Part shown: piece after piece, positions 828-63,361 of the stretch | Position numbering within the stretch: position 1 is the stretch's first letter | How the letters are laid out: each line of letters starts with the position of its first letter | From: Malacoraja senta | Taxonomy: Eukaryota | Direction: 5' to 3' | Assembly (NCBI GenBank): GCA_038087875.1 | Contig: CM075994.1 | Location: 3,474,001 to 3,538,000 of the forward strand | Length of the DNA stretch: 64,000 nucleotides | Translations under genes and position numbers: made by a program | The notes under the pieces: generated by a model | Seen by the model: the letters and a program-made list of their open reading frames with translations, nothing else | What the model was told of the DNA's origin: nothing | The model's database searches: none

Positions 828-854
828 CACTGAAACTGAAGCGAAAGATTTTTG
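828..854 (+). CDS. Microexon 1 (27 nt, phase 1-1) of unnamed coiled-coil host gene; xLKLKRKIF
   Basis: ttctctctggtgcAG|CACTGAAACTGAAGCGAAAGATTTTTG|GTgaga; open frame. Confidence 0.75.
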
Positions 855-1459
855 GTGAGAGCTCGAATTAGTTTACGTATACATTTGCATGGACAAATGT
901 AAAATATTTACACATTCAGTTCTAATTTGAAATGATGAAAATGATAAAAGAGAAGATGTAAATAACCCGAGGCAGGTTAAAATATTGCTGTTGGCTTCGT
1001 GACTTGGGTTCCTCGTCGTAATGAAAGTGAAAAGTCCAATGAAATCTCTCTCTGATTGAGAAAGGTCACGAATTAATCTGATGATTGACCAAACCAGCAG
1101 AATAGACATTTCTCTCGACGTCACGTGAAGAGTAAAGCGCAAATGGTTATTATTCCCATTATTGACCATATAATTTTGCACCCATTGATTTTCATATCAA
1201 TGAGCATCACATCCTAACTTGATGCCGACGAGATACAAGTAAGTTATTAAAAGCAGAATCTCACCGGCTGATCATTTAAGGTTAATATGCCTCACGCTCA
1301 ATCACCAATTATTTTCTATTTTGTGACCCGACAACATTTAAGGATATCATCCATGCTAGTAGCTGAGACACGGGCTATGTGTTATATACCTGTTTGGTTT
1401 GATATTCAACTTTCTTGATTTATCATAGAGCAAATAAATATCAGAAATAGATGTAAAAC

Positions 1460-2300
1460 CTCCACGTTTGCGGATGACACAACGATGGGCGGCAGTGTGA
1501 GCTGCGAGTAGGATGCTATGAGGCCGCAGGGTGAGTTGGATAGGTTGGGTGAGTGGGCAGATGCATGGCGGGTGCAGTATAAAGTGGATAAATGTGAGGT
1601 TATCCACATTGGTGGAGAGAACAAGAAGGCAAATTATGTCAGATGGTGCCAGATTAGGAAAAGGGAAGGTGCATCGATACCTGGGTGTTGTACATCAGTC
1701 GTTGAAAGTAGGCATGCAGGTACAGCAGGCAGTGAAGTAAGCTCATGGCACGTTGGTCTTCATAACAAGAGGAATTGAGTACAGGAACAAAGAGTTCCTT
1801 CTGTAGTTGTACAGGGCCCTAGTGAGCCTACATCTGGAGTATTGTGTGCAGTTTTGGTCTCCTAAATTGGGGAAGGAGATTCTTGCCATTGGTAGTAGGT
1901 TCACCAGGTTAATTCCGGTATTGCGGGACTCACATGTGATGGAAGAATTAATCAACTGGGCTTATATTCACTGGAATCTAACAGGATGAGAGGGAATCTT
2001 ATAGAAACATAGACAATTCTTAAGGGATTGGGTAGGCTAGATACAGGAACAATGTTACCGATTAAGAATAAGGGTTAGGCCATTTAGGACTGAGATGAGA
2101 AAAAACACAGTTTTCAGCCAGAGAGTTGTGAATCTGTACAATTCTCCTGCACAGCGGAGGCCAATAAACTGGATGTATTCGAGAGAGAGTTAGATACACC
2201 TCTTAGGGCTAACGGAATCAAGGGACATGGGGAGAAAGCAGGAACAGGGTATTGATTTTGGACGACCAGCATTTATCACATTAAATGGCGGTGCTGGCTT
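1460..2300 (+). mobile_element. CR1 (HER1-like) LINE, degenerate 3' fragment
   Basis: [22 protein letters not shown] peptides; typical 3' tail (…ggcggtgctggct). Confidence 0.9.
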
Positions 2301-2378
2301 GTTTGCAACTAGATCAGCGGATGTTGATAGTAATGGCCATGAAAAATTAATTTGGATCCTGTTGATTTCTGTTTTCAG

Positions 2379-2414
2379 AGGTAGATACCCTGACTACCCA
2401 GCTCCAAGAATGTG
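2379..2414 (+). CDS. Microexon 2 (36 nt); EVDTLTTQLQEC
   Basis: gatttctgttttcAG|AGGTAG…GAATGTG|GTaaga. Confidence 0.85.
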
Positions 2415-2980
2415 GTAAGAATATTGTTGAGAAATTACCACTATATTAATGCACCGATAGAAGGGAACGCGCCTGGAATATCAAAGAATGGCTGTAATTT
2501 ATGTAGTGATATGTTCTTGTACTTTGAAATTAACGTTACCCTCTCTCAATTAAAATGTCGCAAACTTTTTCCAACGAGTTGCAAACTTCATAGAGGGAGT
2601 ACCCAAAAATCAACTTAAAATTCAATGAGAAGTATCGATATCCCGCGATAGAAAATCGCAGAACCTCGTAACAGTATTACGCTTCAACATATATTCATCG
2701 TGGGCTACAATTGTTGCTTATCACTTTAAGTCTGTTTGAATCCATGTAATAATTGGACTATCGTCCAACACCGCAAAGAACTGCACGCACGTTAGAATCC
2801 TTCCAGTGCACTTTTTTCTCTCTCCGGGAATATCGAATGATCGATTGCAAGTAATATTGTAATGGTCAATAACAATAATATTCAAATAGTCATCAATAGT
2901 ATTCTTCATTAATCGTACGCCAGTGTCATTGCGTCGTCTTTTCTTTCCTTTAAGGATATTCAATATTCAACCTGATATTG

Positions 2981-2999
2981 TGACGCCATCTGGTGGTCG
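2981..2999 (-). promoter_or_regulatory. CTCF-like motif
   Basis: Minus strand CGACCACCAGATGGCGTCA resembles the CTCF core consensus; motif match only. Confidence 0.35.
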
Positions 3000-3470
3000 G
3001 GTCACTGGTTAATCGAACCCTCGTTCATTATGTGATAAGAGGCACGTGACCGAGGAGCGGTGGTTAGGAAGGATGGTCAGCTATTCTGCTATTGTTTTGG
3101 AATTATTTTTGTTTAATAAGGCTTGTCCATGAGTTCACAACGTGTGACTCGCTTTATTGCACTTTAATATCTAGAAAACGGGATTCCTTTGAATATATTT
3201 CCATCTAATCACCGATCATCAAAACCGCATTTTCACGCGCACACAAAACCACCGTACGGCCAAACCTTCCCTTATTTAAAAATATACAATATACGTCTAT
3301 TAAAATGTGCATATATCAAAAATATTTCATGGCAACTGAACTCAAACAGCATGTAATATTACAAGTGAAAGAAATAATGAACATGTAATTCAGGAATTTG
3401 TCATTGACACAAGTAATATTTTCATAATTATTAAAATATGTATCATTTTATAAATGTTTTTGCTTTACAG

Positions 3471-3497
3471 AGCGAAAGCTAAAACAAAAAGAGAAAG
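3471..3497 (+). CDS. Microexon 3 (27 nt); ERKLKQKEK
   Basis: gtttttgctttacAG|AGCGAAAG…GAGAAAG|GTaagt. Confidence 0.9.
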
Positions 3498-3637
3498 GTA
3501 AGTCGTTCATGAGCCAATACCTCAAATTTGTTGTGCTTTCGACCTACTTCCATCGCAAGTGCCACATGTAGCTAATTATTTCTAAATAATGATGGTAAGA
3601 ATGTACCAGTATAAATATATATTTAATATATTTGTAG

Positions 3638-3664
3638 ATATTGACACGCACGTAAAGGATGACG
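3638..3664 (+). CDS. Microexon 4 (27 nt); DIDTHVKDD
   Basis: atatttgtAG|ATATTGAC…GATGACG|GTgagt. Confidence 0.85.
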
Positions 3665-3974
3665 GTGAGTAGCCTGGCGAACAGAGAAGATAGATTATTT
3701 TCAGAGCCCCATAATATACTCTGAGGAAAATAAATCTTTAAAAAATTCCCAATTACTTTCAGACCACGGCATTTTATATTTTCGTACTTATCATTTGATT
3801 AAGAAATTCAATTGTTCCCATCGTTAACCAACCTCAGTCACTGTTGTGGATATGTTTATTCTTCCATGTCTCCTATAAAAATTCAATTTTCACCTTAAAC
3901 TTACACTGTCTCGTATTTGCACTGTCCACCCTGTGATTATGACTTACTTCTTATCTTATCTGTAATATATTTTT

Positions 3975-4868
3975 AGTAGACAAAAAATACTGGAGAAACT
4001 CAGCGGGTGAGGCAGCATCTATGGAGAAAAGGAGTAGGCGACGTTTCGGGTCGAGACCCTTCTTCAGACTGATGCTGGGGCGCGGGAAAAAGAAAGCAAG
4101 ACCCAGAGGCAGTAGGCTATGTGGGAGAGCTCGGAAGGGGGGGGTGCGGGAGGGAGCAAGGACTGCGTGAAAATAGAGAAGTCAATGTACATACCGCTCG
4201 GTTGTAAACAACCCAAGCGAAATTTGAGGTTTCTCCAATTTATGCTGGGCCTCAATCTGGCAATGGAGGAGGCCCAGGACAGAAAGGTCAGATTCAGAAT
4301 AGGAGGGGGGTTGAAGTCCTGGGCAACCGGGAGATCAGGTTGATTAGTAGGGACTGAGCGGAAGTGTTGGGCGAAGCGGTCGCCGAGCCCACGCTTGGTC
4401 ACCGATGTAGAGCTGGGCGACCGCTTCGCCCAACACCTCCGCTCAGTCCGTACTAACCAAACTGATCTCCCGGTTGCCCAGCACTTCAACTTCCCCTTCC
4501 ATTCTGAATCTGACCTTTCTGCCCTGGGCCTCCTCCAGTGCCAGGGTGAGGCCTAGCGTAATTTGGAGGAACAACACCTCATATTTCGCTTGGCTAGTTT
4601 ACACCCCAGCGGTATGAACATTGACTTCTCTAATTTCAGGTCGTCCTTGCTTTCTACCTTCTTCCCCTCCCCCTGTACAGCTCTCCCATAGCCTTCTGTC
4701 TCCGCTTCTTCCTTTCTTTTTTCCGCACCCCACCACATCAGTCTGAAGAAGGGTCTCGACCCGAAACGGCGCCTACTCCTTTTCTCCATAGATCCTGCCT
4801 CACCCGCTGAGTTTCTCCAGCATATTTTGTCTACTTTCGATTTTTCCAGCATCTGCAGTTCCTTCTTA

Positions 4869-4870
<2 letters not shown>
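3975..4870. mobile_element. Penelope-like element 3' ends in inverted (fold-back) arrangement
   Basis: 3975-4405 is the reverse complement of about 4410-4835; GIY-YIG C-terminal remnants (TKRGLGDRFAQH…PVAQ.FN); shared terminal repeat. Confidence 0.8.
4040..4067 (-). ncRNA. Minimal hammerhead ribozyme-like core in Penelope terminal repeat
   Basis: Minus strand CTGAAGA-A-GGGTC-TC-GACCC-GAAA-CGTC: CUGAnGA box, stem II, GAAA, GUC. Confidence 0.55.

Positions 4871-4871
<1 letters not shown>

Positions 4872-4947
<76 letters not shown>
4872..4947. repeat. (TA)n microsatellite
   Basis: Direct reading. Confidence 0.98.
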
Positions 4948-4950
<3 letters not shown>

Positions 4951-5584
4951 CATCGTTTATACAGTTCATCAGTTCCCCCCTTGGCCACCGACGAGAAAAC
5001 AATCAACGTTTCTCTAACAGCTCTTTACAGCTAAAAGTACCAATCTATTCCACACTCCAATGATCCTCTTCTGTCCGTTCACCACACCAACGACATCATT
5101 ACTATCGTGCGGCGACCATCAGTCCCGGTGGTGCTTAAACTTCGATGATATATATTTTTTGGATACCACATTAGTTAAACGACTTGTTTAATATTTCCTA
5201 TACCCTTATACTTCAAGCTGGAATTTTTCAGTCCCTCATTGAACGTGTTTCAGTGTATTTTTACTTTCAATAGAACGCAAATAAATGTATATTTTCGAAT
5301 TTATTGACCTCTCAGTTGCTTAGACGTCTGCTCGATGTAAATTTACATTACCATGGTAATGACGGTCTGAGGTGCATTGCAGCTAATTATTTTCGACCAT
5401 CTACCAGTTTCAATTGATTTTTTGGGGGATTCTGAATAATTGGTTCTTTTTCAGATACACTCCTGCGCCACACAAGGAACTTGGAATCGTTTTGTTTCAC
5501 ATCCAGGATATTACCATCTAAAATAATTAACCTCAGCAGTCAAATGTGTGCTGGAAATGAACACCTGAACAATAAACTGTCACT

Positions 5585-5682
5585 CAAGGGATACTGAGTT
5601 GGATGATCAGCCATGATCATATTGAATGGCGGTGCAGGCTCGAAGGGCCGAATGGCCTACTCCTGCACCTGTTTTCTATGTT
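5585..5682 (+). mobile_element. CR1/HER1 3' tail fragment
   Basis: gatcagccatgatcatattgaatggcggtgcaggctcgaagggccgaatggcctactcc, shared with other CR1 copies here. Confidence 0.8.
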
Positions 5683-5791
5683 TTTATTCCAAGTTTACAA
5701 TACGATTTACATATATCTGCCATTGCGAAATATATATTTGAAATTAATTCAAACTTTTGGTCGATTAATTGTTGTTTGATTAATCCTGCAG

Positions 5792-5818
5792 ACGCAATGA
5801 TAAATGAAGCCAAGTCAG
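5792..5818 (+). CDS. Microexon 5 (27 nt); DAMINEAKS
   Basis: tttgattaatcctgcAG|ACGCAATG…AAGTCAG|GTgata. Confidence 0.7.
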
Positions 5819-5844
5819 GTGATATATATAATGGTTGTACTATT

Positions 5845-6020
5845 TGCTAAAAATAACAAGTGCTCAACGGGACAGACAGCATCTATGGACAGCAGGATTG
5901 GGTGGCGTTTCGGGTCGAGAAGCGTCCGATGAACGGTCTCGACTCGAAACGTCACGCATTCCTCTCTCCAGAGATGATGCCTGTCCCGTTGAGTTACTCC
6001 AGCTTTTTGTGTCTATAATT
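5845..6020. mobile_element. Short Penelope-derived inverted repeat remnant
   Basis: Two opposed copies of the gggtcgaga / gagttactccagc terminal motif. Confidence 0.65.
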
Positions 6021-6475
6021 ACTTATTATATACCGGCGGTGGTATCCTGATTCCTTTACATAAGCACTTACATTTGAAACGCACTGAATGTCTAAGACTA
6101 AACATTGTAAAGTAATCGCTAAGTAATACCGGGATTTTAGCATAATTTAATGAATTATCCCTTGTAAACATGAATATGCTTTGTCAGTAGGAAGAAGACA
6201 AAGACGTATTACTTTGCCTTCTAAGACAGCGCTGATCCCATTCGTATAATAGTAAGGAGATGCGCTAGGGAAGATAGCAAAGATATGAGACATATCAGCA
6301 AAAAGTCCCAATTCAGACCCTCCCCCGCCCCACCCCTCACGATCCCCACCCCCATAGTGTGTATTCATTACGGAAGCTAAGCTCTCAGTACATCTGAACG
6401 CCAGTGCGACCCCGAGTTCCAGTTACGGCGCTTGTCTTCCGACGGTGGAGGATTCCATTACTCTTTATGAGATAC

Positions 6476-9849: not shown

Positions 9850-9925
9850 ATTAATTATTTCTACAAATGTAAATACATTGATATTGGTATCCACGTACAG
9901 GGTAATGTGATGTTGTATCTTACAG

Positions 9926-9961
9926 AGCTTGCGAAACTGACAATCATCCAGAAAGATGTTG
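9926..9961 (+). CDS. Microexon 6 (36 nt); ELAKLTIIQKDV
   Basis: tgttgtatcttacAG|AGCTTGCG…GATGTTG|GTaatg. Confidence 0.85.
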
Positions 9962-10164
9962 GTAATGATTCATTTGAACGTTTTACAAAATGATTGCACT
10001 GCTACAGAAAAGTCAAATTTCATCTTCACGTTAATGTTGTTAATCTTCACGAGGAAACAATATAATATCTTGTTGTTGGAACTACACTGAACACTGAAAT
10101 ACACGGAACATATCTTAAATCCAGTGACAAAATATTTATCCGATTTATGCTTATTTTCCCACAG

Positions 10165-10191
10165 CTGAACTAGTTAGATTAAAGAACGAAG
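10165..10191 (+). CDS. Microexon 7 (27 nt); AELVRLKNE
   Basis: ttattttcccacAG|CTGAACTA…AACGAAG|GTaaaa. Confidence 0.88.
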
Positions 10192-10899: not shown

Positions 10900-10926
10900 A
10901 AATTAAAAGACTTCGCGAGAAATGCG
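10900..10926 (+). CDS. Microexon 8 (27 nt); EIKRLREKC
   Basis: cttttctAG|AAATTAAA…AAATGCG|GTaagt. Confidence 0.9.
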
Positions 10927-16415: not shown

Positions 16416-16442
16416 ACGAACAGACGAAAGAGAAGGATGCAG
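16416..16442 (+). CDS. Microexon 9 (27 nt); DEQTKEKDA
   Basis: ctttcaattattcAG|ACGAACAG…GATGCAG|GTgact. Confidence 0.85.
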
Positions 16443-19004: not shown

Positions 19005-19028
19005 AAGAATCAGGATCATCATCTGAAG
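19005..19028 (+). CDS. Microexon 10 (24 nt); EESGSSSE
   Basis: tttatttttgatttgcAG|AAGAATCA…TCTGAAG|GTaaaa. Confidence 0.85.
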
Positions 19029-20756: not shown

Positions 20757-20780
20757 AAGACATAGGCGTAACAGATGAAG
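20757..20780 (+). CDS. Microexon 11 (24 nt); EDIGVTDE
   Basis: tcttttttaattatAG|AAGACATA…GATGAAG|GTaaag. Confidence 0.85.
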
Positions 20781-22036: not shown

Positions 22037-22063
22037 AGGAAAGAATATCTCGTCAAGAAAATG
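22037..22063 (+). CDS. Microexon 12 (27 nt); EERISRQEN
   Basis: catgtttcaactatAG|AGGAAAGA…GAAAATG|GTgagc. Confidence 0.78.
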
Positions 22064-23836: not shown

Positions 23837-23863
23837 AAGAAGAACTGCGATTGAAAGACGCAG
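23837..23863 (+). CDS. Microexon 13 (27 nt); EEELRLKDA
   Basis: gtgtattttAG|AAGAAGAA…GACGCAG|GTaacc. Confidence 0.88.
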
Positions 23864-24624: not shown

Positions 24625-24660
24625 AAATAAAACGATTGGGGAGACTTTTAATTGATGCAG
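24625..24660 (+). CDS. Microexon 14 (36 nt); EIKRLGRLLIDA
   Basis: tttttctcaacaattccAG|AAATAAAA…GATGCAG|GTcaga. Confidence 0.85.
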
Positions 24661-26447: not shown

Positions 26448-29400
26448 TCATAAAACGGGAAAACACTGAAGGAATTCAGCCATTAACATCTGGAAATGGA
26501 AGTCAAGTAACTAAAATAATAAGCGAAAAGGAACAACCGAAGTTACAACCATTCGAATATACAGAACACAATTTACAGGATTTGGAATACGATATAGACC
26601 CGGACAATAATTTTTACTTTAATTCTAACGACAAAAATATCTGCTGCTACTACACAGAGGAGCAGTATAATCAGAATATTAATACAAAAGGCAAATTATC
26701 TATTATCCACTTTAATAGCAGGAGCCTCTATACGAATTTCAATAGTATTAAAGAGTATTTACAAAAAATTTCACAACCATTCAATGTCATCGCAATATCT
26801 GAAACATGGATTAATCAAGAAAAGGGAATTGATTTTGAGATGGACGGATATGACTTCAATTACATCAATAGAAAAAATAAGGGGGGAGGAGGGGTAGCAC
26901 TATATGTGGATACAACTCTGAATTATAAGGTAGTAGATAATATGACAACTGTGGTTGACAATCTGCATGAATGTATAACTATAGAAATAAGTAATGGTGG
27001 AAATAAAAATGTAATCATTAGCTGTATATATAGGGCACCGGGGTCAAGTATTGAAATCTTCAGGGGCTGGATGGAGAGTATGTTTTCAACAACAGGTAGT
27101 AAATCCGTGTTTTTATGTGGAGATTTCAATATTGACCTACTAAATCCTAATCAACACAACCTTACAGAAGATTTTATTAATACTATGTACAGCATGAGTC
27201 TATTTCCGAAAATCACTAGACCGAGTAGAATTACTTCCCATTGCGCTACACTCATTGACAATATATTTAACAGTGATTTGGAAAATAAAATAGTAAGTGG
27301 ATTATTAATTAATGATATAAGTGACCATCTGCCAGTTTTTGTAGTTTATGATGGTGTCCACAGGAACAACAAACCAAGCGGATTAATAGAATATAGAAGA
27401 GTGAGATCGGAGGAAGCTATCAATGCACTAAAAAAGGATCTATTGGCACAAAACTGGAATATAATATACCAAAAAAGAGACATTGATAGTGCTTATGAAA
27501 CATTTATTGATATGTTTAAATTATTATATGATACAAATTGTCCAATTAAAGAATATAATAGAAAATCAAAATATACTAAATGTCCATGGATTACAAAGGG
27601 ATTACAAAATGCTTGTAAAAAAAAAATGGCCTATACAGAGATTTTATAAGAGAGAGAACTAAAGATACAGAAAATAAATATAAAAAGTATAAAAATAAAT
27701 TAACTTACATCATAAGAGAAAGCAAGAAAGATTATTATAAGAAGAAATTAGATGACAATAAAGACAATATAAAAAGAATATGGAGCATACTTAATAGCAT
27801 TATCCGAAATGGTCCGGGGAGAACAAATTACCCGAAGTATTTTATTGATAAGGATAAGGAAATTTACAATATGGAAGATATAGCTAATAGCTTTAATAAT
27901 TTTTTTGTTAATATTGGACCAGACCTGGCTAAACAAATCCCTGATTCAGGGACATCTGGAGAAACACCTGAGAAATTAGTGGAAAGAAATCCCTGCTCTA
28001 TGTTTCTTACGGCAGTAGAAGAGAAAGAACTGCTGGATATTGTCAAAACATGTAAAAATAAGAAGTCTACCGATTTCAATGACATTGACATGTCGCTAGT
28101 TAAGATGGTCATTGAGGGGATCTCCAAACCTTTAACATTCATCTGTAATTTATCCTTCCAGACCGGCACTTTTCCAATTAAAATGAAAATAGCAAAAATA
28201 ATACCAATATACAAAACAGGGAACAAGCATCATTTTACAAACTATAGACCTGTTTCCTTACTCCCACAATTTTCCAAAACATTAGAAAAAATGTTTAATA
28301 ATAGACTAGACAAATTTGTAGAAAATAATAAATTATTAACAGAAAGTCAATATGGATTCAGAACAAATAGATCAACATCACTTGCAATACTAGAATTAAT
28401 TGAAGACATCACAAACGCCATTGATAAGAAATTATATGCAGCTGGGATATTCATTGACATAAAAAAAGCATTTGATACAATTAATCATGATATTTTATTA
28501 AAAAAATTGGAGAGGTATGGAATTAGAGGAATAGTACTGGACTGGATTAAAAGTTACTTAAGTAACAGGCAACAGTTTGTAAATCTGGGTAGTCATAATT
28601 CTACATGTTTGGACATTGTGTGTGGTGTACCACAGGGGTCAGTGCTGGGCCCATATTATTTATCATGTACATAAATGATATTTGTAATGTGTCCAATGTC
28701 TTGAGGCTGGTTTTGTTTGCAGATGATACAAATATTTTTTGCTCTGGGGAAAATTTAAAAAGGCTATTGGATAAAATAATAAAAGAAATGGGTAAATTGA
28801 AAATATGGTTTGATAGTAATAAAATTTCATTAAATCTGAGTAAAACTAAAATAATGTTATTTGGTAATTGTAGAATAAGTCCCCTAGTAAGTATAAAGAT
28901 AAATGGGGTGGAAGTTGAAAGAGTGCATGAAAATAAATTTCTTGGGGTTATAATTGACGATAAAATAAGCTGGAAATCACATATTAAACATGTAAAATTA
29001 AAATTATCAAAAAGTATCTCTGTATTATACAAAGCCAAGCAAGCTCTGGATTACAAATCACTCCGTATTCTTTATTGTACATTAATTTTACCCTACTTAA
29101 ATTATTGTACAGAAGTCTGGGGAAATAATTATAAAAATTCGATACACTCATTAACCATGATGCAAAAAAGAGCAATTCGTATTATCCATAATGCTAAGTA
29201 TCTGGGTCATACGAATCCATTATTTTTAGAGTCAAAATTATTAAAATTAGAAGATTTGGTCACATTCAAAACAGCTCAGATAATGTTTAGGGCCAAAAAT
29301 AAAAATTTACCTGGAAACATTCAAAAATTATTTAACGAGCGTGTGGGGGGTTACAACTTAAGAGGAATATTTAACTTTAAGAAACAACAAGTCCGTACGA

Positions 29401-33615: not shown

Positions 33616-33642
33616 AAACGAGAGCAACTCGCGCACAATTAG
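33616..33642 (+). CDS. Microexon 15 (27 nt); ETRATRAQL
   Basis: ttattgtttggttAG|AAACGAGA…CAATTAG|GTgagc. Confidence 0.83.
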   Translation, partial: KREQLAHN

Positions 33643-36967: not shown

Positions 36968-36994
36968 ATCTTAAAAGGTTTCGCGACAAAGCTA
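36968..36994 (+). CDS. Microexon 16 (27 nt); DLKRFRDKA
   Basis: tttctaccttaatAG|ATCTTAAA…AAAGCTA|GTaagt. Confidence 0.87.
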
Positions 36995-37868: not shown

Positions 37869-37892
37869 GAGACGCAGGAGCGTTAGATGAAG
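37869..37892 (+). CDS. Microexon 17 (24 nt); RDAGALDE
   Basis: tcttttttgtgtgcAG|GAGACGCA…GATGAAG|GTaaaa; resembles exon 11. Confidence 0.85.
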
Positions 37893-38231: not shown

Positions 38232-38276
<45 letters not shown>

Positions 38277-40851: not shown

Positions 40852-40878
40852 ATACCAGATTTTCTTTGGAGAAATGTG
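40852..40878 (+). CDS. Microexon 18 (27 nt); DTRFSLEKC
   Basis: gtttatcttctAG|ATACCAGA…AAATGTG|GTgagc. Confidence 0.87.
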
Positions 40879-43626: not shown

Positions 43627-43653
43627 AAGAAAAACTGAAGGACAAAGAAAAAC
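43627..43653 (+). CDS. Microexon 19 (27 nt); EEKLKDKEK
   Basis: ctttctatctttcAG|AAGAAAAA…GAAAAAC|GTgagc; paralogous to exon 3. Confidence 0.9.
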
Positions 43654-44768: not shown

Positions 44769-44795
44769 AAATTGATGACCATCGTGAGCTCTGCA
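44769..44795 (+). CDS. Microexon 20 (27 nt); QIDDHRELC
   Basis: ctgtgtattttacAG|AAATTGAT…CTCTGCA|GTgagt; paralogous to exon 4. Confidence 0.88.
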
Positions 44796-45774
44796 GTGAG
44801 TAAAACCAATCAGATAAAACGCAGCGAAAGTGTGGCAAATATTATTGACACAAATTACACGTTACACACACCTGTGACACATACTGTATCGTGTGCAAAT
44901 TGAATGCTGGGTTTGGCGTAACTTGGCTGTAACGTAGGCTCTTTGCACAAACCACCCCCAGAAAGAGAGAAGCGTGTATTCCTTATTCACGTTTTGTAAA
45001 CTCCTGTTGAAAACATCGATGTGTATCCTCTTCAGGCGTACCATCCGTGCATAACATACCATATATAAGTACAATCAAACCATACACAAGCACCACAGAT
45101 AATTCCAATGATAAAATAATAAAGAAAAGTGTAGAGACAATACTTCAATTACCACCATGAGGCAGATTTGGAAACGGGGAGTAGTATTTGAGTGGTATTT
45201 TCAAGAGTCTGGTGACAGCGGGGAAGAAACTATTTTTAAATCTGGTCGTATGTGATTCCAGGCTTTTAGATCTTATACCAAACAGGGGAAAGGAGTATGG
45301 GGAATGAGCTGTTTGTAAATGGTTCTTGATGATATTGTCTGCATTCTCGAGTCAGCGTGAAACGTAAATTAGGTTGACGGGGCTCAGGTTGGTTTGCGTG
45401 ATTTACCGGGCTGCATCCATAACTATTTACAATTTTACTTCGGAGTCACGTGAGTGACTACGTGAAGAACCCCGTACAGCCGCACGTGCGTCATTACGTC
45501 AGACGCATTGGTGCAGGCGGCCGGTTGGAGCAGCAAAGCTCCTCCAGCGCGGTAAATTTAAACTTCAGGTAAGGTTGTATTTCTTACCTGTTTTTGTTTC
45601 CTTGCAGGAACCTCTTGTTCCAGAGGCTTTCTGCCGGGTGATTCGCGAGGACCGACGAGGGAACCAGCTATGGCTATGGGGCAACCCAGGTCCGACCGCG
45701 GAAGCGGGTAGCTGGCGAATGTCGGGTTTCGCGATCGCAATCACTGATAACACCGTCAGTGACTGCCGGACGCT

Positions 45775-46137
45775 GTGGTTCCCGGGAAGGGGACATGTAG
45801 CATACCGGTCGGGAGGTTTTCTCTCCGATATAAATATACATGCTGGGGTTCCCGGGGAGGGGACATGCAGCAGACCGGTCGGGAGGTTTCCCTCCGATAT
45901 AAATATACATGCTGGGGTTCCCGGGGAGGGGACATGCAGCAGACAGGTCGGGAGGTTTCCCTCCGATATAAATATACATGCTGGGGTTCCCGGGGAGGGG
46001 ACATGCAGGAGACCGGTCGGGAGATTTTTCCTCCGATATAAATATACATGCTGGGGTTCCCAGGGAGGGGGCATGCAGCAGACAGGTCGGGAGGTTTCCC
46101 TCCGATATAAATATACACGCTGGGGTTCCCGGGGAGG
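45775..46137. repeat. 69-bp minisatellite, about 5 copies, inside DIRS
   Basis: ATATAAATATAC recurs at 45828, 45897, 45966, 46036 and 46105. Confidence 0.93.
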
Positions 46138-46427
46138 TGAAATCCAGTAGTATGTGGCTCCCAGACGAAACGGTCCGCAGGATAGGGGTTAAACAGACGA
46201 GAACGGTCAGCTCTAGTGCCAGGAGGTTTTCCCTCCGGCAAGGCATATAGACGCTGGGATTCCCGGGGAGGGGTAATTCAGCAGTAATGAGGTACCCAGA
46301 CCGCAGTGGTCCCCAGGATATGGGGTAAACGGACCAAAATGGTCAGCCCTGGTGCCGGGAGGGTTCCCTTCCGGTAATAAGAAAATTTGGAGGTTGGCCA
46401 GGAGAGAATCCATCTAGATACACTCCA

Positions 46428-46832
46428 ACAGCAGGAGTTGGACAGGGCTGCTTAATGGGGATACCGAGTCTGCGGCAGTGTTGGGCATATGGGAGAGCCC
46501 GCACTAGCAGCGCCTTGGACAGGGCTGCTTAATGGGGATGCCAAATCTATGGCAGGGCCGGCCTATTGGAAAGGCCGCGCCAGCAGCGCCTTGTAACAGG
46601 GCTGCTTAATGGGGATGCCGAATCTATGGCAGTGCCGGCCTATGGGAGAGTCCGCGCCAGCAGCGCCTTGTAATAGGGCTACATAATGTATGGCAGCAGC
46701 ACCCGTAGTAGAGCTGCATAATGTCTCCCTCAATGGAGGAGGTGAGCTTACCGGGGCAGTTCTGTTCTGACCCTGAAGGGTGGGCCTATTGCAGAGGCCG
46801 CGCCAGCAGCGCCTTGTAACAGGGCTGCCTAA
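46428..46832. repeat. Degenerate tandem repeat of about 75-77 bp inside DIRS
   Basis: cagcagcgccttg.aacagggctgcttaatggggat recurs. Confidence 0.8.
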
Positions 46833-49760: not shown

Positions 49761-49787
49761 AAAAACAAGCCCGCGAAAAAGAGGCAG
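49761..49787 (+). CDS. Microexon 21 (27 nt); KKQAREKEA
   Basis: attattttcattccAG|AAAAACAA…GAGGCAG|GTaaat. Confidence 0.9.
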
Positions 49788-50802: not shown

Positions 50803-50838
50803 AAATTCTAGCGCTTAATATGATTTTGCAAGAAAATG
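50803..50838 (+). CDS. Microexon 22 (36 nt); EILALNMILQEN
   Basis: atatctgctttcAG|AAATTCTA…GAAAATG|GTaaga. Confidence 0.87.
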
Positions 50839-57100: not shown

Positions 57101-57224
57101 TTAAAATCTGGCAATGTGCACTTTAACCACATGTGATTTTTTTTCTATTACAAATCTCAAATTGTGCAGTAGAGTCCAATAAATAAATGATGGAACTTTG
57201 TCCCAAACATTATGGAGGGCACTG
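54119..57224 (-). mobile_element. Tc1/mariner DNA transposon (IR/DR-type TIRs), degenerate, interrupted by CR1
   Basis: TA|CAGTGCC… and …GGCACTG ends; about 220-bp TIRs with inner and outer ATGTTTGGGAC repeats; KHGGG.VMAW, NDPKH, WPSQSPDLNPIE. Confidence 0.92.
54780..56145 (+). mobile_element. CR1 LINE fragment inserted in the Tc1 transposase
   Basis: GSVLGP, KFADDTKL, CVQFWSP; CATTGT on both flanks. Confidence 0.92.
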
Positions 57225-57360
57225 TGCATTGTATCTGTTTGCTTCGTTGTTACCTTCTCTTAGCTATTCTAGATTATTGATCTTACCTTGATCTCCACCC
57301 TCGTTGAGGTCTCGTTCTCACACCTGGCACATCCTTATCACTGTATCTCCCTCTCTCAGT

Positions 57361-57388
57361 CTGAAGAAGGGTCTTGACCCGAAACGTC
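57361..57388 (+). ncRNA. Minimal hammerhead ribozyme-like core in Penelope 3' repeat
   Basis: CTGAAGA-A-GGGTC-TT-GACCC-GAAA-CGTC in the element's sense orientation. Confidence 0.55.
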
Positions 57389-57646
57389 ACCCATTCTTTC
57401 TGTGCTGAGATGCTGCCTGTCCCGATGAGTTACTCCAGCATTATGTGTCGATTTTAGCATGGCTTTGCATGTAAGAGATCAGCTATTGTACAACAATAAT
57501 GTGAAGGAAGCCACTTCCAATGTCACTTTCCCTGTGAACAGGGTAGAATCTGAATGTAATTAGTTTAATCAGAAAATTACTGAAACTTGCGCAAATAGAA
57601 ATGGGTAACGTGCTAGTGTATTGCAATAACAAAACTTTTTTTTCAG

Positions 57647-57682
57647 AAATGCAGAAGCTTAGGAAAGCTGTTCGTGATATGG
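57647..57682 (+). CDS. Microexon 23 (36 nt); EMQKLRKAVRDM
   Basis: cttttttttcAG|AAATGCAG…GATATGG|GTaagg. Confidence 0.9.
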
Positions 57683-58491
57683 GTAAGGCAGCATAAATTA
57701 GCACTGATATTTCCAAGTAATTACAGCAATGTTGCAATTAAGAAAACATCAGATGTATTTCTATTGCAAGACTTTTTTTATGTTAGTTTTCGTGAATATA
57801 TTGTTGACTGAAAATTACCACTTATCCATGCCACATGCTTGGTTTTCAGTTTATTGTCAGAAGAAACGATTCATGTTCCATAGTTGCCATCTATTTAGTT
57901 GCCGTCCATTCTTTAAAGTTTCAAATTATGTTGCCAACACCATGTCAATTGCTCTCATAACTTTGGTCGAAACTAACCTGATCGAAATTAACCCTTATTG
58001 ACAAAAGGAATATCAGTGCAACGTTTTAAACATTCTACACGTACATTGATCAGTAGGCATTGCTTATGAACAGGGATAAGAATTCCCAGTCCGATGAGTT
58101 TTGGAATTTAGCACCACAGAATGTTCTACAGTGGAAGTTCTGAGAATGTTTCAGAAGGAAACAGATTTCCAGTCATTAAAAGCTTAGGGCAGTATCAGAG
58201 ATAGCGATGACATAAGTTGAGAATGAATAGCAGTCGGGCAGATGCTGATCATTTTTCATTGCGAGAAAGATTGATGTTGAATAATGAATTGAACTAAGTA
58301 CAAATGTACTAAAAAGTGGATTAAGTCCTCTAATTTTCACGACAGGGAGGAAACTGCGTCAGAACGAATTTGGTACGTCCAAAAACATTTCACTGCTTTG
58401 TACCACCATGTTTGAATTTAATTGTTTAAAATGTACATCATTTGCCAGTGCTTGGTATTAGTGCTTCTATCCATGAATTTTATTGTTTCAG

Positions 58492-58515
58492 AACCAGGAG
58501 TTGATCAAAGCAACG
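58492..58515 (+). CDS. Microexon 24 (24 nt); EPGVDQSN
   Basis: ttttattgtttcAG|AACCAGGA…AGCAACG|GTgagt. Confidence 0.88.
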
Positions 58516-58559
58516 GTGAGTAGTTGCACATTCCATCTCCTTAAGATGCAGAGTTACAT

Positions 58560-58720
58560 CTTGCTCTTAGAGCTAACAGAATCAAAGGATATGGGGAGAG
58601 AGCAGGAACGGGGTATTGATTCTGGATGCTCAGCCAGGATCATATTGAATGGCAGTGCTGGCTCAAAGGGTGGAATGTCCTACTCCTGCACCTTCTTTCC
58701 ATGTTTCTGTTTCCCATGAA
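58560..58720 (+). mobile_element. CR1 3' tail fragment
   Basis: Same tail motif as other CR1 copies. Confidence 0.75.
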
Positions 58721-58930
58721 TTGGGTTACATTATGTTGATATCGATAAACATGGATCTGGATTTGCATGTCGTGTTAAGTAAAGTAACTATACGCACCAA
58801 AAAATTGTAAAAACTTTGGAACTGTAAGAAACATAATTGCCATCCTGATTCATAAATTCGCATCAGCAATTCCAAACCTCGACAGATTGCTCAGCTTGCC
58901 ATCAATGTGAATTGTGATGTATTTTTCCAG

Positions 58931-58966
58931 ATCTTAAGGAGATGGAAGATATCCGCGAAGAACTAG
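58931..58966 (+). CDS. Microexon 25 (36 nt); DLKEMEDIREEL
   Basis: gtatttttccAG|ATCTTAAG…GAACTAG|GTtaat. Confidence 0.8.
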   Translation: MLRRWKISAKN

Positions 58967-59174
58967 GTTAATTCTTTAAATTAATTCACCAAATATTTGT
59001 CATATACCACAAATAATGGTGGTGTTTATTGCACACGTTGTTGATAGAATATTGGTTTTAAAGGACTCCATAATTTGCATTTCATGTGAAAACAATCACA
59101 AATTAAAATTGTTTCAAAATTAATTGGCGTCTTGAAGGATGTAACTAAACCGATATTGATAGGATTATCAAACG

Positions 59175-59798
59175 TTCAAAGTTCAGTTTGTCACATGTAC
59201 CGATTAAGGTACAGTGAAACTCGAATTACCATGCAGCCATTCTAAAAAAAAAGCAACATGACACACAAAGTTAACATAAATATCTACCACAGCACATTCC
59301 CCACAGTGATGGAAGGAAATAGTCAAATCTTCTTCATCTTTATTCTCCCGCAGTCAGGACAATCGAACCATCTGCAATCGGGTGATTGAACCTCTGGCGT
59401 CGGCGAGGGCGAAGCTTCTGCGGCTTGGAACTCCCAAAGGGACCGCCAGCTCCACAACGATAAGTCCATAGGCTCCTGCGGTTGGAGCTCCTAAGTCGAA
59501 CCCCGACAGGGATCGCAAGCTCCACGATGTTAAGTCCGCAGGCTCTAGCGGTTGGAGCTCCCAAAGTCGGTCTCCAGCAGAGGCCGCCAGCTCCACGATG
59601 TTAGGCCGCAGTGCGGACAGATACAATATGCCAAAAAAATGGCATCTCCGTGAAGGCAAGATATTAAGAAGTTTCCCCCAAATGCACCGCTCCACATAAA
59701 ACAAGCTAAAGAACACTAAAATATACATTAAACACATTCTTAAAAAATATATAGAAGGAAGGGACAGACTGTTGGCGAGGCAGCCATTGCTGGCACCA
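59175..59798 (-). mobile_element. Non-autonomous LINE-tailed repeat, copy A
   Basis: 5' motif ggtgccagcaatggctgcctcgccaacagtctgtc on minus strand; internal 'aacatcgtggagct' sub-repeats. Confidence 0.6.
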
Positions 59799-59877
59799 GG
59801 CAAAACAGGCAAAGACATTCATTTTATATAATTCACGAAGGCAATGACAAAGCATAATTCAGAGTTGGATATTCACC

Positions 59878-60612
59878 GGGTGGCGCCGTCAGCGATGGCA
59901 GCCTTGCTAAAAGTCTGTCTGTCTTTTTGTCCTTTTTGTTATTTTTTTGTGTGTTTTAAAAGTATGTTCTCTGGTTTGTTTTATGTGGGCAGTAGGGGAG
60001 GGGGTAAGGGGAACGTTTTTTTCAATCTCTTAACTTGCTGGAGATGCGATTGTTTTCTGGATCATATCTCCGGTCGCTCTGCAGCCTAACATCATGGAGC
60101 TGGCGGCCTTGCTCGAGACTGACTTTAAGCCCCACCGCAGGAATGTGGGCTTACAATCGGAGCCTGCAATCCTATTCCTGGGACCGATGCTCCAACCGCA
60201 GCCTGCGGATTCCAACATCGAGGAGCTTGCCGTCTCGGGTAGAGGCTGATGTTGGGTTTCAATCAGCCCCGACCCAGGATAGATCGCCTGGCGCAGGGGA
60301 CCCGAGATTCCTCCCCCTCCCCGATGCAGGAGCTTGATCGCCCTGACATGGAGGGCCTGTCGCTAGTTACAGGAGTCAAGATCGTCCTGACAACGGAAGG
60401 TTCGAGGCCCCTGACAACGGGAGGACAAAGAAAGAATGGGATTAATCTTTTTTTCGTCTTCCATCCCAATGAGGAATGTGCAGGAGCCACTGTGGTGGAT
60501 GTTTATGTTAAAATGTACTTTGTGTTTTGTTGCTTTTTATTGGTATGACTGTGCGGCAAATCAAATTCCTCGTATGTTGCAAAACATACTTGGCTAATAA
60601 AGTCATTATGAT
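59878..60612 (+). mobile_element. Non-autonomous LINE-tailed repeat, copy B (head-to-head with A)
   Basis: 5' motif ggtggcgccgtcagcgatggcagcc…agtctgtc; tail ttggctaataaag similar to that at 41760. Confidence 0.6.
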
Positions 60613-61037
60613 TTTCACAAGGTGCTTGCATGCGCAACTTGATGTAGTTTGAAAATGCCCTCTTTCACCTCCACCCCATATTTTATCATTCACTCTAGAA
60701 ATGTTCAACTTAGTTTGTGCACTTTAATCACAATTAACAACCGTTTTCAATAGTTGTCCATGCAGAGCATGCAATATCCTTGTGCATAGGTTTCAACATG
60801 ACCTCATTGGAGGTAAAAAAAGGCAGACCGTAATGGAAAGAATGAAACCTATGTGGCCTAACAGTAGTGAAACACATTCATAGGTAGATGTGTTGGAGAG
60901 AAGGAAAATCAATGCATAGCTCTTAAAGGCAGAATTCTATGGTTATCTGTTAGATTACGATTTCTCAAAATCATCTTAATCATTCATAACTTTAGTTTTA
61001 TCATGTGTGGTATCATCTTCATTAACTTTCCGGTGTC

Positions 61038-61648
61038 TTGAACCTAATACACAAAGGATTATCTTTGGATCAATGGAAGATGGGAATAAGCTAAATACAT
61101 TTCAAAAATCTCTACTTAATTACGGTTTAAGAACGGCAAAAAAAACTCATACTTAAATTTTGGAAAAATGCACCAACACCAATGCTCAAAATGTGGATTT
61201 CAAATATGTCAGAAACGGCATATCTTGAAGAAATGCGACTCCTTCTAGCAGGTAAAGTAGACCAATTCTTCTTGATTTGGTCTCCTTTTATCGACTTCTT
61301 ACAAGCATATGGTGCAACACAACCATAGAAATAAAATGGTTCAGAATCAGGTGACGGGTGGCCAGGAACATTAAATAGGTATATCGCTTTCAATCTCCTT
61401 TTTCTTTTTTTCCCCCCTCTATTTCGTCTCTTTCTTCTTTCTTCCGGGCTATCTTTCTATTTCACGTAACACTCTATGTCAATCTCTCCTTTTCTATTCT
61501 TTTCTCCCTTACTCCTGCTTTATTATTAAATTAAAAATAAGAAGTTGTATATGAAATGTAATATCTCAACAAGTATTAGGTACTGTGGTACCACATTATT
61601 GTACTTACTCCTAACAAAAATAAATAAATAAATAAATAAAAGGAAAAG
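61038..61648 (+). mobile_element. L1/Tx1-type LINE 3' fragment with 12-bp TSD
   Basis: TAKKLILKFWK.APTP.LKMW…FFLIWSPFIDFL; (TAAA)n tail; TSD CTTTCCGGTGTC at 61026-61037 and 61649-61660. Confidence 0.85.
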
Positions 61649-61986
61649 CTTTCCGGTGTCATTGATTGTGCACCAGGAACAATGTTTATTCCTCATAACA
61701 CAGAGGGAACACTATTGTAACTCACATGCCAACATGTATTACTTGAGGAAACCAATTCAATAGAAGCCTTATAATGAGCAGGAGTATTGGCAGTGAATTA
61801 TATACAATATTTATCATAGGGAATTCAAATAGCTCTGAATTTGCACATTGAAAAAGTTCTATGAGAACCAAATTCCAATGACAATTTTGAACATTACAAA
61901 TAGTTGGTTTTTTATACAGTATATCAATTTTGTGCCAAATGATTTTGCAAAGCCATGCTACTAATTGACATTTAATCTTTCGCCAG

Positions 61987-62013
61987 AGGAAAAATTGCGC
62001 GAAAAGGAGTCAG
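61987..62013 (+). CDS. Microexon 26 (27 nt); EEKLREKES
   Basis: tttaatctttcgccAG|AGGAAAAA…GAGTCAG|GTaatg. Confidence 0.9.
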
Positions 62014-63334
62014 GTAATGTACAGTTAAATTATATTCTCAGTGGTAGTTTATGCATTGAAAAGAGCACTAAAATTATTTTTCAAGTGAGAATTATGTCCT
62101 GGCTTCTACACTCAATGATCTGCAAATAACATCGAAGATTTTGTGTCACTGTAAATCTAAGCAGCGCTGCATTCTTCATGATGGACGTTGGAACTGTTTG
62201 TAGGGAGAGCATAATGTATCTTTTTATTCCATCAATGTTCCGAGAGATAAGCATCAAAACCAGGATGCATGGGTTCTAATAGAGTTCATAATAAATTCAT
62301 GAATATCAAACAAAACAATTGATTGAAAACAGTTGGGATTCCGGCGGAAATATGAGAAATAGAAAAAAATACTTTTCAATATGCGAAAACTATTTGAAAT
62401 CCCAAATCTTGTACTTGCAAAATGACATGCGCAGTGGGGAGCGCTCAGTCCGTTACAGCTAAGGCATCTTGTCTTTCAAAACAAAGACGGGCTCTGTGAC
62501 CAAAACTAGTCTATACAGACCTGGATCCCACATCCAAGCTAAAGAAAAAATAAACAAACTGCACAGCATAGTGTTAGTTGCAGAGAACCTGCTAATGTCA
62601 ACATGCAAGGGCCACAATGAGGTACATTGGAAGATCGGGACCAAGCCTAAAATATCCTTGGCCTTCAAGATTCGTCTAACAGCGGGGATTATTCCCTAAT
62701 CTGCTGCTACGTGCTTTTAAACTTTGGTACCTTATGCCCGAGAGAAGGGAGATGACAGATGGTCCGGTGGCATGTCTTAATACATACATGAAGACTCGGA
62801 ATTAATGCAGATTTCCCTAAAGAATGACATTGATGAGGGAGCCTTGTTCTGTGGATAGACTGTGTAGTTGGAACTCATTGCAACAAACTTAGTGTACCAG
62901 ATTGGCAAAGCTATTTGAAATTCTCAAAGGCTGGGGGGTAGAGAGAGGATATCCTTTCTTTTGGCTGAGGGTTGAAGAGCGATTGCCAAAAGTGATACCC
63001 CTCAAATACACTGTGTAATTTATTGACTTTGGAATTCACTTTTATGTGCGAATTCAAATGCAGCGCTCAAGAAGCTGGAGTTATCTCTTAGTACATAGTT
63101 TTCAGGATAATGAAGTGGCTGAATGGGTCTAACTGTATTTTACATACGTAGAGCCAGTACGAACTCAACAAACCAAATAGCCTCCAATAACCCTGTGGTC
63201 CTCTTCATTTAGCTTAAAAATAAAAATCAGATCAACTATTACACGTTTTACATTTGCATTAGACACAGAACAAAAACATGTCACAAATTATTTGAAAAAT
63301 CTATTTCATTCATCTCTGCCATATTTATCTTTAG

Positions 63335-63361
63335 AGCTGAATTATCTTCGTGCTATTTGCA
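63335..63361 (+). CDS. Microexon 27 (27 nt); ELNYLRAIC
   Basis: atatttatctttAG|AGCTGAAT…ATTTGCA|GTaagt. Confidence 0.88.

Follow-up and report, generated by a model that had tools for sequence, protein, structure and literature searches.

Does a 64,000-nt stretch of the Malacoraja senta genome (hereafter the window; all coordinates are counted from its first base and are negative upstream of it) hide a protein-coding gene made of exons so small that they escape notice? A preliminary description had claimed such a gene on the plus strand, built of symmetric phase-1 microexons. The claim is upheld by the specificity of the signal for one strand, one region, and one frame, by conservation in a paralogue, and by a dN/dS of 0.34. 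Our reading, which we give a probability of about 0.8, is that the window covers the 3′ two-fifths of a protein-coding gene of great length on the plus strand, composed here only of phase 1-1 microexons and encoding a helical rod.

Tiny Symmetric Exons and Their Splice Signals

A de novo scan for AG...GT segments open in phase 1-1 recovered all 27 of the segments picked out earlier, in place (Table 1), and their inner peptides agree with the earlier listing when compared by eye. Seventeen are 27 nt long, six are 36 nt, and four are 24 nt. Phase 1-1, in which a codon is split into 1+2 bases, is the sole open phase in every one of them, as it is in the 57-exon model presented below. Spliced in sequence, they add up to 771 nt with 256 full codons and no stop, and they make up 1.2% of the 64 kb, as had been stated. 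The acceptor is CAG or TAG in 27 of 27, the first exon base is A in 24 and the last is G in 23, and the junction codon is E or D in 22 of the 26 joins. If the exons are spliced to one another, as we propose, the split codon G|AN would nearly always yield Glu or Asp.

The exons had been placed outside transposons. None overlaps sequence that recurs in the window or its flanks (a test limited to repeats within these regions, which hit 27% of the window), and none lies inside an ORF with a transposon domain. As to the reported lack of ordinary exons, none with a Pfam domain was seen on either strand of the window, and Pfam scans of ORFs found no other kind of coding exon between −94.6 kb and +63.4 kb.

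Table 1. Microexons of the window and their status in the paralogue. Numbering follows the preliminary description; fractions are identical bases; "coordinates only" marks exons inside an aligned paralogue block that were not viewed base by base.
Microexon	Position	Strand	Length (nt)	Remarks	Paralogue
1	828..854	+	27	phase 1-1; not the gene's first exon	18/27; AG/GT, length, frame kept
2	2379..2414	+	36		32/36; AG/GT kept
3	3471..3497	+	27		22/27; AG/GT kept
4	3638..3664	+	27		24/27; AG/GT kept
5	5792..5818	+	27		21/27; AG/GT kept
6	9926..9961	+	36		35/36; AG/GT kept
7	10165..10191	+	27		24/27; AG/GT kept
8	10900..10926	+	27		24/27; 3/3 changes synonymous
9	16416..16442	+	27		77% block; coordinates only
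10	19005..19028	+	24	G/S-rich, linker type	74% block; coordinates only
11	20757..20780	+	24	linker type	74% block; coordinates only
12	22037..22063	+	27		68% block; coordinates only
13	23837..23863	+	27		exon-centred 115-nt, 78% island; coordinates only
14	24625..24660	+	36		78% block; coordinates only
15	33616..33642	+	27		79% block; coordinates only
16	36968..36994	+	27		22/27; AG/GT kept
17	37869..37892	+	24	linker type	19/24; donor kept, acceptor AG not conserved in alignment
18	40852..40878	+	27		21/27; AG/GT kept
19	43627..43653	+	27		79% block; coordinates only
20	44769..44795	+	27		73% block; coordinates only
21	49761..49787	+	27		74% block; coordinates only
22	50803..50838	+	36		75% block; coordinates only
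23	57647..57682	+	36		32/36; AG/GT kept
24	58492..58515	+	24	P/G-containing, linker type	18/24; AG/GT kept
25	58931..58966	+	36		35/36; single change synonymous
26	61987..62013	+	27		77% block; coordinates only
27	63335..63361	+	27	last recognised array member	72% block; coordinates only

Controls for Chance

Open AG...GT segments of 24, 27, or 36 nt are plentiful in the window, with 440 on the plus strand and 410 on the minus strand, and this gives ample choice to anyone who assembles a series by eye. Against such a chance origin stands, to begin with, the asymmetry between strands. A fixed filter (length 24/27/36, open phase 1-1, pyrimidine tract, pyrimidine at −3, a donor scoring 3 or more out of 5, A as first and G as last base, and an E/D/K/R/Q share of 35% or higher) passes 18 plus-strand and no minus-strand sites in the window. 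The signal recurs in the 100 kb upstream, DNA that had played no part in the preliminary description, where the same filter passes 19 plus and 1 minus sites; in the 100 kb downstream it passes 2 and 0. Twenty Markov simulations of 164 kb gave 0–4 passes per run, versus 37 observed. The frame is specific too: on the window's plus strand the claimed frame has 28 charged open candidates, compared with 9 and 12 for the alternatives.

A held-out model of splice sites and residues, trained only on the 27 window exons and used at a score of at least 16, finds 26 plus and no minus sites in the upstream 100 kb, 5 and 0 between −130 and −100 kb, and 2 and 0 in the downstream 100 kb. Together with exon-centred conservation in the paralogue and a frame-specific dN/dS (see following), these results make a chance set extremely improbable; the strand, unseen-DNA, simulation, and paralogue controls refute it.

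Conservation in a Second Copy

The same contig carries a diverged, colinear second copy about 626 kb further downstream. All 27 exons are inside blocks alignable to it, in colinear matches of 68–79% identity, and the 4 upstream exons tested are covered by paralogue matches as well. About 10–13 of the 27 were placed in the paralogue by coordinates only, and block membership alone is weak evidence because introns also align at 68–79%. Of the 14 exons compared base by base, 13 keep AG/GT, length, and open frame without an indel. At microexon 2 the alignable island consists of the exon and only about 50 nt on each side.

With exon 17 left out, mismatches amount to 56 of 384 bases (14.6%) in 13 exons and 541 of 2193 (24.7%) in the aligned introns (Fisher p = 7.7e-6). 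For the same 13 exons, the claimed frame has dS 0.385, dN 0.129, and dN/dS 0.34 (p = 3.7e-4, 115 codons), and the other two frames have dN/dS of 1.79 and 0.78, with 13 stop codons each. The comparison indicates that purifying selection has held the exons in the phase-1 frame in both copies; the ratio of 0.34 is moderate, on a basis of only 115 codons from 13 exons. There is also an internal duplication of 13 kb, about 82% identical overall; between its copies the 36-nt exon shows a single, synonymous change in 36 bases, and a neighbouring exon an in-frame difference of 3 nt.

One might still see in the array a decaying relic, once coding in both copies and now unexpressed or unneeded. Exon 17, weaker than any other in the set, has seemingly lost its acceptor in the second copy, and a dN/dS of 0.34 averages over the whole time since duplication, such that a recent loss of constraint would not show. 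Yet all 57 modelled exons are open with splice sites kept, 13 of 14 viewed paralogue exons are intact at a dS of about 0.39, and the two wrong frames carry 13 stops each; exons of 24–36 nt free of constraint would show stops, indels, and lost splice sites far more often. A relic is hence very unlikely.

Extent and Growth of the Array

The earlier count of at least 27 exons was too low, as the array extends upstream beyond the window. An extended, non-overlapping model has about 57 exons between −94,625 and 63,361, spread over about 158 kb, and gives 1,662 nt or 553 codons without a stop. Its 30 upstream exons are model predictions, among which a few may be false or missed. The introns are 0.1–14 kb long and filled with transposons. 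Downstream of microexon 27 the array model has almost no matches. Neither end of the gene, with its start or stop codon or its promoter, was found in scans from −130 kb to +164 kb.

Seven colinear exons in a row resemble those 11 positions away, with a score of 119 that none of 300 shuffled exon orders reaches (best shuffle 109). Such order indicates a cassette of about 11 exons whose tandem duplication built the array; the whole gene was duplicated afterwards.

The Predicted Protein

The product, as proposed, looks coiled-coil-like. Among its 256 residues 49.6% are E, D, K, or R, with 1 proline and 5 glycines. The hydrophobic period of this 27-exon product is 3.4–3.5, and 2 of 1000 shuffles reach it at 3.4 and 6 of 1000 at 3.5. 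The 57-exon model has its top period at 3.46, a sharp peak to which these shuffle figures do not refer, and no excess power at exactly 3.5 or 3.6.

The three length classes differ in composition. In 36-nt exons the hydrophobic residues stand at codons 2, 5, 9, and 12, as a-d-a-d heptad spacing would place them. Charged residues dominate the 27-nt exons, in which codon 4 is the commonest place for a hydrophobic one, and G, P, and S abound in those of 24 nt. The product would thus be a long, highly charged α-helical rod, most likely a two-stranded coiled coil, in which the 24-nt exons may form short breaks between helical segments. Exons of 9 or 12 codons do not fit whole multiples of 7, so that the heptad register need not be continuous, and the product could be a single stable helix or an interrupted coil. 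As every exon is symmetric, skipping one leaves the frame intact; the length of the rod could therefore be tuned by exon choice, and also by gain and loss of cassettes.

Relation to Known Tiny-Exon Genes

Genes with tiny exons are already known as a kind, among them the tails of chicken BG proteins and the schistosome micro-exon genes (MEGs). According to PMC5938342 and PMC4046983, BG genes have 27–37 tiny exons with the first codon split into 1+2 bases. Their tail exons encode a charged heptad coiled coil and vary in number between genes; this number shifts by duplication, and exon skipping or read-through alters the length of the tail. The array shares with BG genes the long runs of tiny, symmetric, split-codon exons, and its predicted product, a charged α-helical coiled coil, would resemble theirs.

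The preliminary description had gone further and guessed at a butyrophilin/BG-like receptor, of which the array would be the cytoplasmic tail or stalk, with leader, Ig-V, and transmembrane exons further upstream. The shared exon logic favours this, and our scans stopped short of the 5′ end of the gene. In Pfam scans of plus-strand ORFs, with a minimum of 90 aa between −100 kb and +164 kb and of 60 aa between −130 kb and −90 kb (254 + 91 ORFs), the domains matched were those of transposons only. No V-set/Ig match occurs in plus-strand ORFs from −130 kb to 0, and no SPRY or PRY among the 93 downstream ORFs of this strand that reach 90 aa (+64 kb to +164 kb); the suggested check of the flanks for Ig and transmembrane exons upstream and B30.2 downstream came out negative from −130 kb to +164 kb. 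Nor is there a convincing hydrophobic leader or transmembrane exon between −130 kb and −70 kb. In BG genes, as described in those sources, leader, Ig-V, and transmembrane exons lie just upstream, with the microexons directly after the transmembrane exon, whereas here none was found within 130 kb and the array is already about 158 kb long, with about 57 exons and kilobase, transposon-filled introns. The usual length of a BG exon is 21 nt, for one heptad, with a few exons of 18 or 24 nt; those here are of 27, 36, and 24 nt. Mammalian butyrophilins (BTN/BTNL) have only a few cytoplasmic heptad exons of the split-codon kind (PMC4046983). In BTN a B30.2 (PRY-SPRY) exon follows them, and the 100 kb downstream of the array gave no SPRY or PRY match. 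The guess of a butyrophilin/BG-type Ig-superfamily receptor thus finds no support in the flanks from −130 kb to +164 kb, and we regard it as unlikely.

In schistosome MEGs, according to PMC4350168, most of the coding region likewise lies in very small symmetrical exons, and this symmetry permits protein variants by alternative splicing without frame shift; a signal peptide is present on all their products, and such genes seem to be confined to platyhelminths. The array differs in its product, a predicted rod of several hundred residues (553 codons modelled) with heptad-like periodicity, and in its setting, a genome of 1.94 Gb. No signal-peptide exon was found between −130 kb and −70 kb, the 5′ end of the gene being beyond the scans.

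As for neuronal SRRM4-dependent microexons, the likeness to the array is one of size class (3–27 nt). They are single, alternatively spliced exons within genes of ordinary exons, and we know of none forming tandem arrays that make up a whole coding sequence over tens of kilobases. TSBP1 and triadin have many small exons that encode charged, repetitive regions; a search of the literature found no exon-level description of either.

What kind of gene, then, is this one? It might represent, at this locus, a large coiled-coil gene that already has a name and annotated relatives in other species, and whose microexon structure would be familiar to annotators and perhaps never remarked on. That BG tails and MEGs exist shows the kind not to be new. 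Against this identity we can set, as weak evidence, that a literature search of partial coverage, in which wording may differ, found no account of arrays of 27- or 36-nt exons encoding a coiled coil. We consider this identity possible but rather doubtful. With similar reserve one may entertain a type of animal gene that has so far escaped description: a giant "all-microexon" gene in two copies, without an Ig/B30.2 part or relatives in named families. Its make-up, as tentatively drawn here, would be dozens of 24-, 27-, and 36-nt phase-1 exons in 11-exon cassettes, set among kilobase introns filled with transposons and encoding a modular coiled-coil rod. If true, the length and surface of the rod would be set combinatorially by the choice of exons and cassettes, and the gene would lend itself naturally to the study of exon definition by the spliceosome over a long series of isolated microexons. 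The exons are richer in purines than their flanks (fraction 0.65 versus 0.49) and have 20 GAR/AAG/AGA triplets per 100 nt versus 6 in the flanks; this GAR/AAG content probably doubles as a splicing enhancer for exons so small.

Microexons in the Window

All 27 microexons of the preliminary description are recovered, each in its place, by a mechanical scan of the window (42% GC, from an assembly of 1.94 Gb in 6,182 contigs) for open AG...GT segments in which the first two bases finish a codon and the last base opens the next one (phase 1-1). The exons have lengths of 27 nt (17 exons), 36 nt (six), and 24 nt (four), and the spliced sequence of 771 nt contains 256 complete codons and no stop. The acceptor is CAG or TAG in every case, the first base is A in 24 exons and the last base G in 23, and the codon split by the junction is Glu or Asp in 22 of the 26 joins. 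The exons are all clear of sequence repeated within the window, in its flanks, or in the unrelated loci compared, in a limited test that marks 27% of the window as repeated. Among window ORFs of 90 aa or longer, taken from both strands, Pfam identifies transposon domains only (RVT_1, Exo_endo_phos, rve, and DDE_3), and the ORFs carrying them overlap no microexon. An Rfam scan of the window finds no family. For a LINE ORF, an atlas look-up returns neighbors from both arthropods and chordates.

Two repeats of other kinds are present between the exons. In one intron, tandem repeats with units of 69/139, 136, and 77 nt form a GC-rich cluster that has several open frames on both strands. Between exons 24 and 25 lies a short interspersed repeat, about 160 nt long, that has very many copies in the genome (87-89% identity) and is missing from that spot of the paralogue considered below.

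Excess over Chance

Short open segments arise easily, and the exons might have been picked from a background of such segments. In their raw form, open AG...GT segments of 24, 27, or 36 nt are indeed common and strand-symmetric in the window (440 on the plus strand versus 410 on the minus strand), and one fixed filter was therefore applied to both strands and to flanks that had not been seen when the exons were first described. The filter demands one of the three lengths, an open reading in phase 1-1, a pyrimidine tract of 50% or more, a pyrimidine at -3, a donor that scores 3 or better out of 5, A as first base, G as last base, and at least 35% of E, D, K, R, and Q. It retains 18 segments on the plus strand and none on the minus strand of the window, 19 and one in the upstream 100 kb, and two and none in the downstream 100 kb. 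In 20 Markov simulations of the 164 kb, it retains from 0 to 4 segments, versus 37 observed. An equal density on the minus strand or in shuffled sequence, which the preliminary description had named as grounds for abandoning the gene, is thus not what is found. The frame is also specific: of the charged open candidates on the plus strand of the window, 28 are in the proposed frame, versus 9 and 12 in the alternative frames. A model of splice sites and residues, trained exclusively on the 27 window exons and used at a score of at least 16, gives 26 hits on the plus strand of the upstream 100 kb, five between -130 and -100 kb, and two downstream, with none on the minus strand of any of these regions. 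Hence, filter, frame, simulations, and trained model all indicate a signal specific to one strand, one frame, and one region, and not an artefact of picking.

Extended Array and Gene Ends

When non-overlapping hits with a score of at least 14 are assembled, the model reaches 57 exons, 1,662 nt, and 553 codons without a stop, well in excess of the "at least 27" exons first proposed. The 30 upstream exons are predictions, of which the minus-strand control suggests that about 0-2 are false. The shortest array intron has 117 nt and the longest 14.2 kb; the median is 1.45 kb. One candidate exon within the window (score 15.6) was dropped, as it falls within the reverse-transcriptase ORF of a LINE and would give a stop at the next join.

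Positions of the predicted exons, the paralogue, and other elements (L numbers are pieces of the upstream flank, except L020-L024, which are downstream; C18 is contig CM075994.1; negative window coordinates are upstream of the window)
Feature	Sequence	Position	Window coordinates
Window, plus strand	C18	3,474,001-3,538,000
Extended array, 57 exons			-94,625 to 63,361
Predicted upstream exon	L009	5375-5410
Predicted upstream exons	L010	3868-3894, 4575-4601, 7604-7639, 8341-8367
Predicted upstream exons	L012	2596-2619, 7955-7978, 8252-8287
Predicted upstream exons	L014	1028-1054, 1332-1367, 7062-7088, 7623-7649, 8159-8185, 8960-8995
Predicted upstream exons	L015	304-330, 1688-1714, 2911-2934, 3661-3696, 3848-3874, 4497-4523, 6200-6235, 9197-9223, 9341-9367
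Predicted upstream exon	L016	5603-5629
Predicted upstream exons	L017	677-712, 3253-3279, 4660-4695, 6834-6860, 8505-8540
Predicted upstream exon	L018	9615-9641
Internal tandem duplication, two copies	L012-L014		about -64,100 to -60,800; -51,400 to -47,700
Dropped candidate exon	window		28016-28051
Tandem-repeat cluster	window		45772-46688
Short interspersed repeat	window		58550-58714
Low-complexity segment open in three frames	L031	3791-5040
Inverted low-complexity arms	L031	4120-4780, 5190-5700	about -105,900 to -104,300
LINE with lipase-like stretch	L016	6474-9904	about -23,500 to -20,100
Candidate segments repeated at a fixed spacing	L020-L024		about 74,100-92,400; 102,400-120,700
Paralogue, colinear copy	C18	4,075,497-4,169,423
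Paralogue, blocks with the 27 window exons	C18	4,102,695 to about 4,168,800
Paralogue, counterparts of upstream exons	C18	4,075,497-4,079,881

The array pattern ends downstream of the last window exon at 63,361. Between 63.4 and 84 kb there are 14 acceptor candidates for a 3' terminal exon, none of them outstanding. On the 5' side, a few model hits lie beyond the array, between -128 kb and -113 kb. A segment of L031 that is open in all three frames was ruled out as an exon, being CT- and GA-rich low-complexity DNA. The same region holds a CT-rich and a GA-rich low-complexity arm in inverted orientation, each about 600 nt long and directly preceded by similar unique sequence; the region is noncoding. 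Within the array, L016 carries a LINE in whose ORFs a GDSL-lipase-like stretch stands before the endonuclease and reverse-transcriptase domains. Downstream of the array, candidate segments in L020-L024 recur every 28.3 kb or so, a sign of a large tandem duplication; no Pfam domain is found in the plus-strand ORFs of this region that reach 90 aa.

A Paralogue and the Evidence for Selection

A genome search with transposon-free pieces of the window identifies a single further copy on the same contig, colinear and about 626 kb downstream, at 68-79% identity. All 27 exons fall within blocks alignable with this paralogue, with their order kept, and each of the four upstream exons tested has a counterpart there. 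As the introns align as well, position within a block is by itself weak evidence of exon conservation. For ten exons, only coordinates link the window to the paralogue; its sequence was compared for 14, of which 13 keep AG and GT, length (no indel), and open frame. The acceptor of exon 17 is lost in the alignment. With unaligned bases counted as differences, exons are 85% identical; identity drops to 70-73% over the 25 intron bases nearest the exon and to 25-41% more than 75 bases away. With the splice consensus excluded, mismatches number 56 in 384 positions for the 13 intact exons, versus 541 in 2,193 for aligned introns (Fisher p = 7.7e-6). The Nei-Gojobori method gives dS = 0.385, dN = 0.129, and dN/dS = 0.34 over 115 codons (p = 3.7e-4); the other two frames give dN/dS of 1.79 and 0.78, with 13 stop codons each.

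Judged from sequence, the predicted coiled-coil microexon gene is real, under selection, and present in two copies. The hidden host gene of the preliminary description is in this respect borne out, both by the specificity of strand, frame, and region and by conservation in the paralogue at this dN/dS ratio. Exons 5 and 6 are separated by 4.1 kb in the window, with a LINE between them, and by 0.45 kb in the paralogue. Intron sizes thus differ between the copies while the exons are retained, which indicates that transposons continued to enter after the duplication.

Predicted Product and Exon Composition

The product of the 27 exons consists of E, D, K, and R at 49.6%, Leu at 11.7%, and Ile at 5.9%, with one Pro and five Gly. 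It has a hydrophobic period of 3.4-3.5, matched by two and six of 1,000 shuffles, and the strongest hydrophobic period of the 57-exon model is 3.46. In the 36-nt exons, L, I, V, M, or F occupies codon 2 in 13 of 16 exons, codon 5 in 16 of 16, codon 9 in 11 of 16, and codon 12 in 7 of 16, which is an a-d-a-d spacing. In the 27-nt exons, codon 4 is the one most often hydrophobic (20 of 34) and the remainder is mostly charged. G, P, and S make up 27-36% of the 24-nt exons versus 2-5% of the others. From this composition, the protein would be made of helical coiled-coil segments with short linker breaks.

Exons of 24-36 nt isolated amid kilobase-sized introns bear on how exon definition works without close neighbors. 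Purines account for 0.65 of exon bodies versus 0.49 of the flanks, and GAA, GAG, AAG, and AGA triplets for 20 per 100 nt in exons versus 6 in the flanks. Such a purine-rich, GAR/AAG-type makeup is that of exonic splicing enhancers, and a purine bias of this kind offers a possible answer to how isolated microexons are defined. Exons shorter than about 30 nt are poorly handled by gene finders and by ordinary RNA aligners. A gene with at least 57 of them over at least 158 kb is therefore a stress test for annotation, and windows that are filled with transposons and look empty can carry selected coding sequence, here at a density of about 1%.

Relation to Known Microexon Genes

Arrays of symmetric microexons are known from other genes. 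Chicken BG genes, as described in passages of two papers, have 27-37 exons of 21 nt, with a few of 18 or 24 nt, whose first codon is split into one base and two; they follow leader, Ig-V, and transmembrane exons and encode a tail of charged heptads forming a coiled coil (PMC5938342, PMC4046983). Mammalian butyrophilins, in the account of one of these papers, have a few such heptads and then B30.2 (PMC4046983). In schistosome micro-exon genes, the coding region is described as mostly very small symmetrical exons, with a signal peptide on all products and splice variants that vary by a few residues (PMC4350168). The present gene resembles all three in its symmetric microexons and modular product, but differs from them in exon lengths, scale, and kilobase-sized introns.

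The resemblance to BG and butyrophilins had led to the proposal that the array encodes the tail or stalk of such a receptor. However, unlike both, the gene lacks their defining domains in the scanned DNA. Pfam searches of 404 ORFs (110 + 144 + 91 + 59) give transposon domains and a few weak matches below the cutoffs of their families, with no V-set or other Ig, SPRY, or PRY domain. On the plus strand, they took in ORFs of 90 aa or more between -100 kb and +164 kb and, between -130 kb and -90 kb, those of 60 aa or more. A scan for hydrophobic exons between -130 kb and -70 kb gives one weak candidate for a leader or transmembrane exon and none that is convincing. With no such domain and no leader, transmembrane, or terminal exon found, the assignment to the butyrophilin/BG family is unsupported, although such 5' exons could lie farther upstream than the scanned DNA. 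If the family is unrelated to these receptors, the present gene would be a second, independent array of phase-1 microexons building coiled coils. The full-text literature, within a partial coverage that makes this weak evidence of novelty, yields no description of arrays of 27- or 36-nt exons encoding coiled coils. The search, equally partial in coverage, yields nothing relevant on the exon structure of TSBP1, and no exon-level description of triadin.

Growth by Duplication

Taken together, a cassette of 11 exons, the internal 13-kb duplication, and the paralogue of the whole gene provide a stepwise record of how a repetitive rod protein grows by duplication of symmetric exons. Exon-by-exon comparison of the 57-exon model reveals runs of similar exons that recur in the same order 11 exons farther along; such runs start at model exons 10, 21, and 32. 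The best run spans seven exons and has a BLOSUM sum of 119, whereas the best of 300 shuffled exon orders scores 109. These runs indicate that a cassette of about 11 exons was duplicated in tandem as the gene grew; window exons 2-12 amount to 309 nt, or 103 codons. At the DNA level, no similarity between exons remains within the array, and the cassette duplications are hence old. The internal tandem duplication of about 13 kb, in L012-L014, has copies that are about 80-82% identical. Its 36-nt exon has one difference between copies, which is synonymous, and the small exon beside it has 24 nt in one copy and 27 nt in the other, an in-frame difference of 3 nt.
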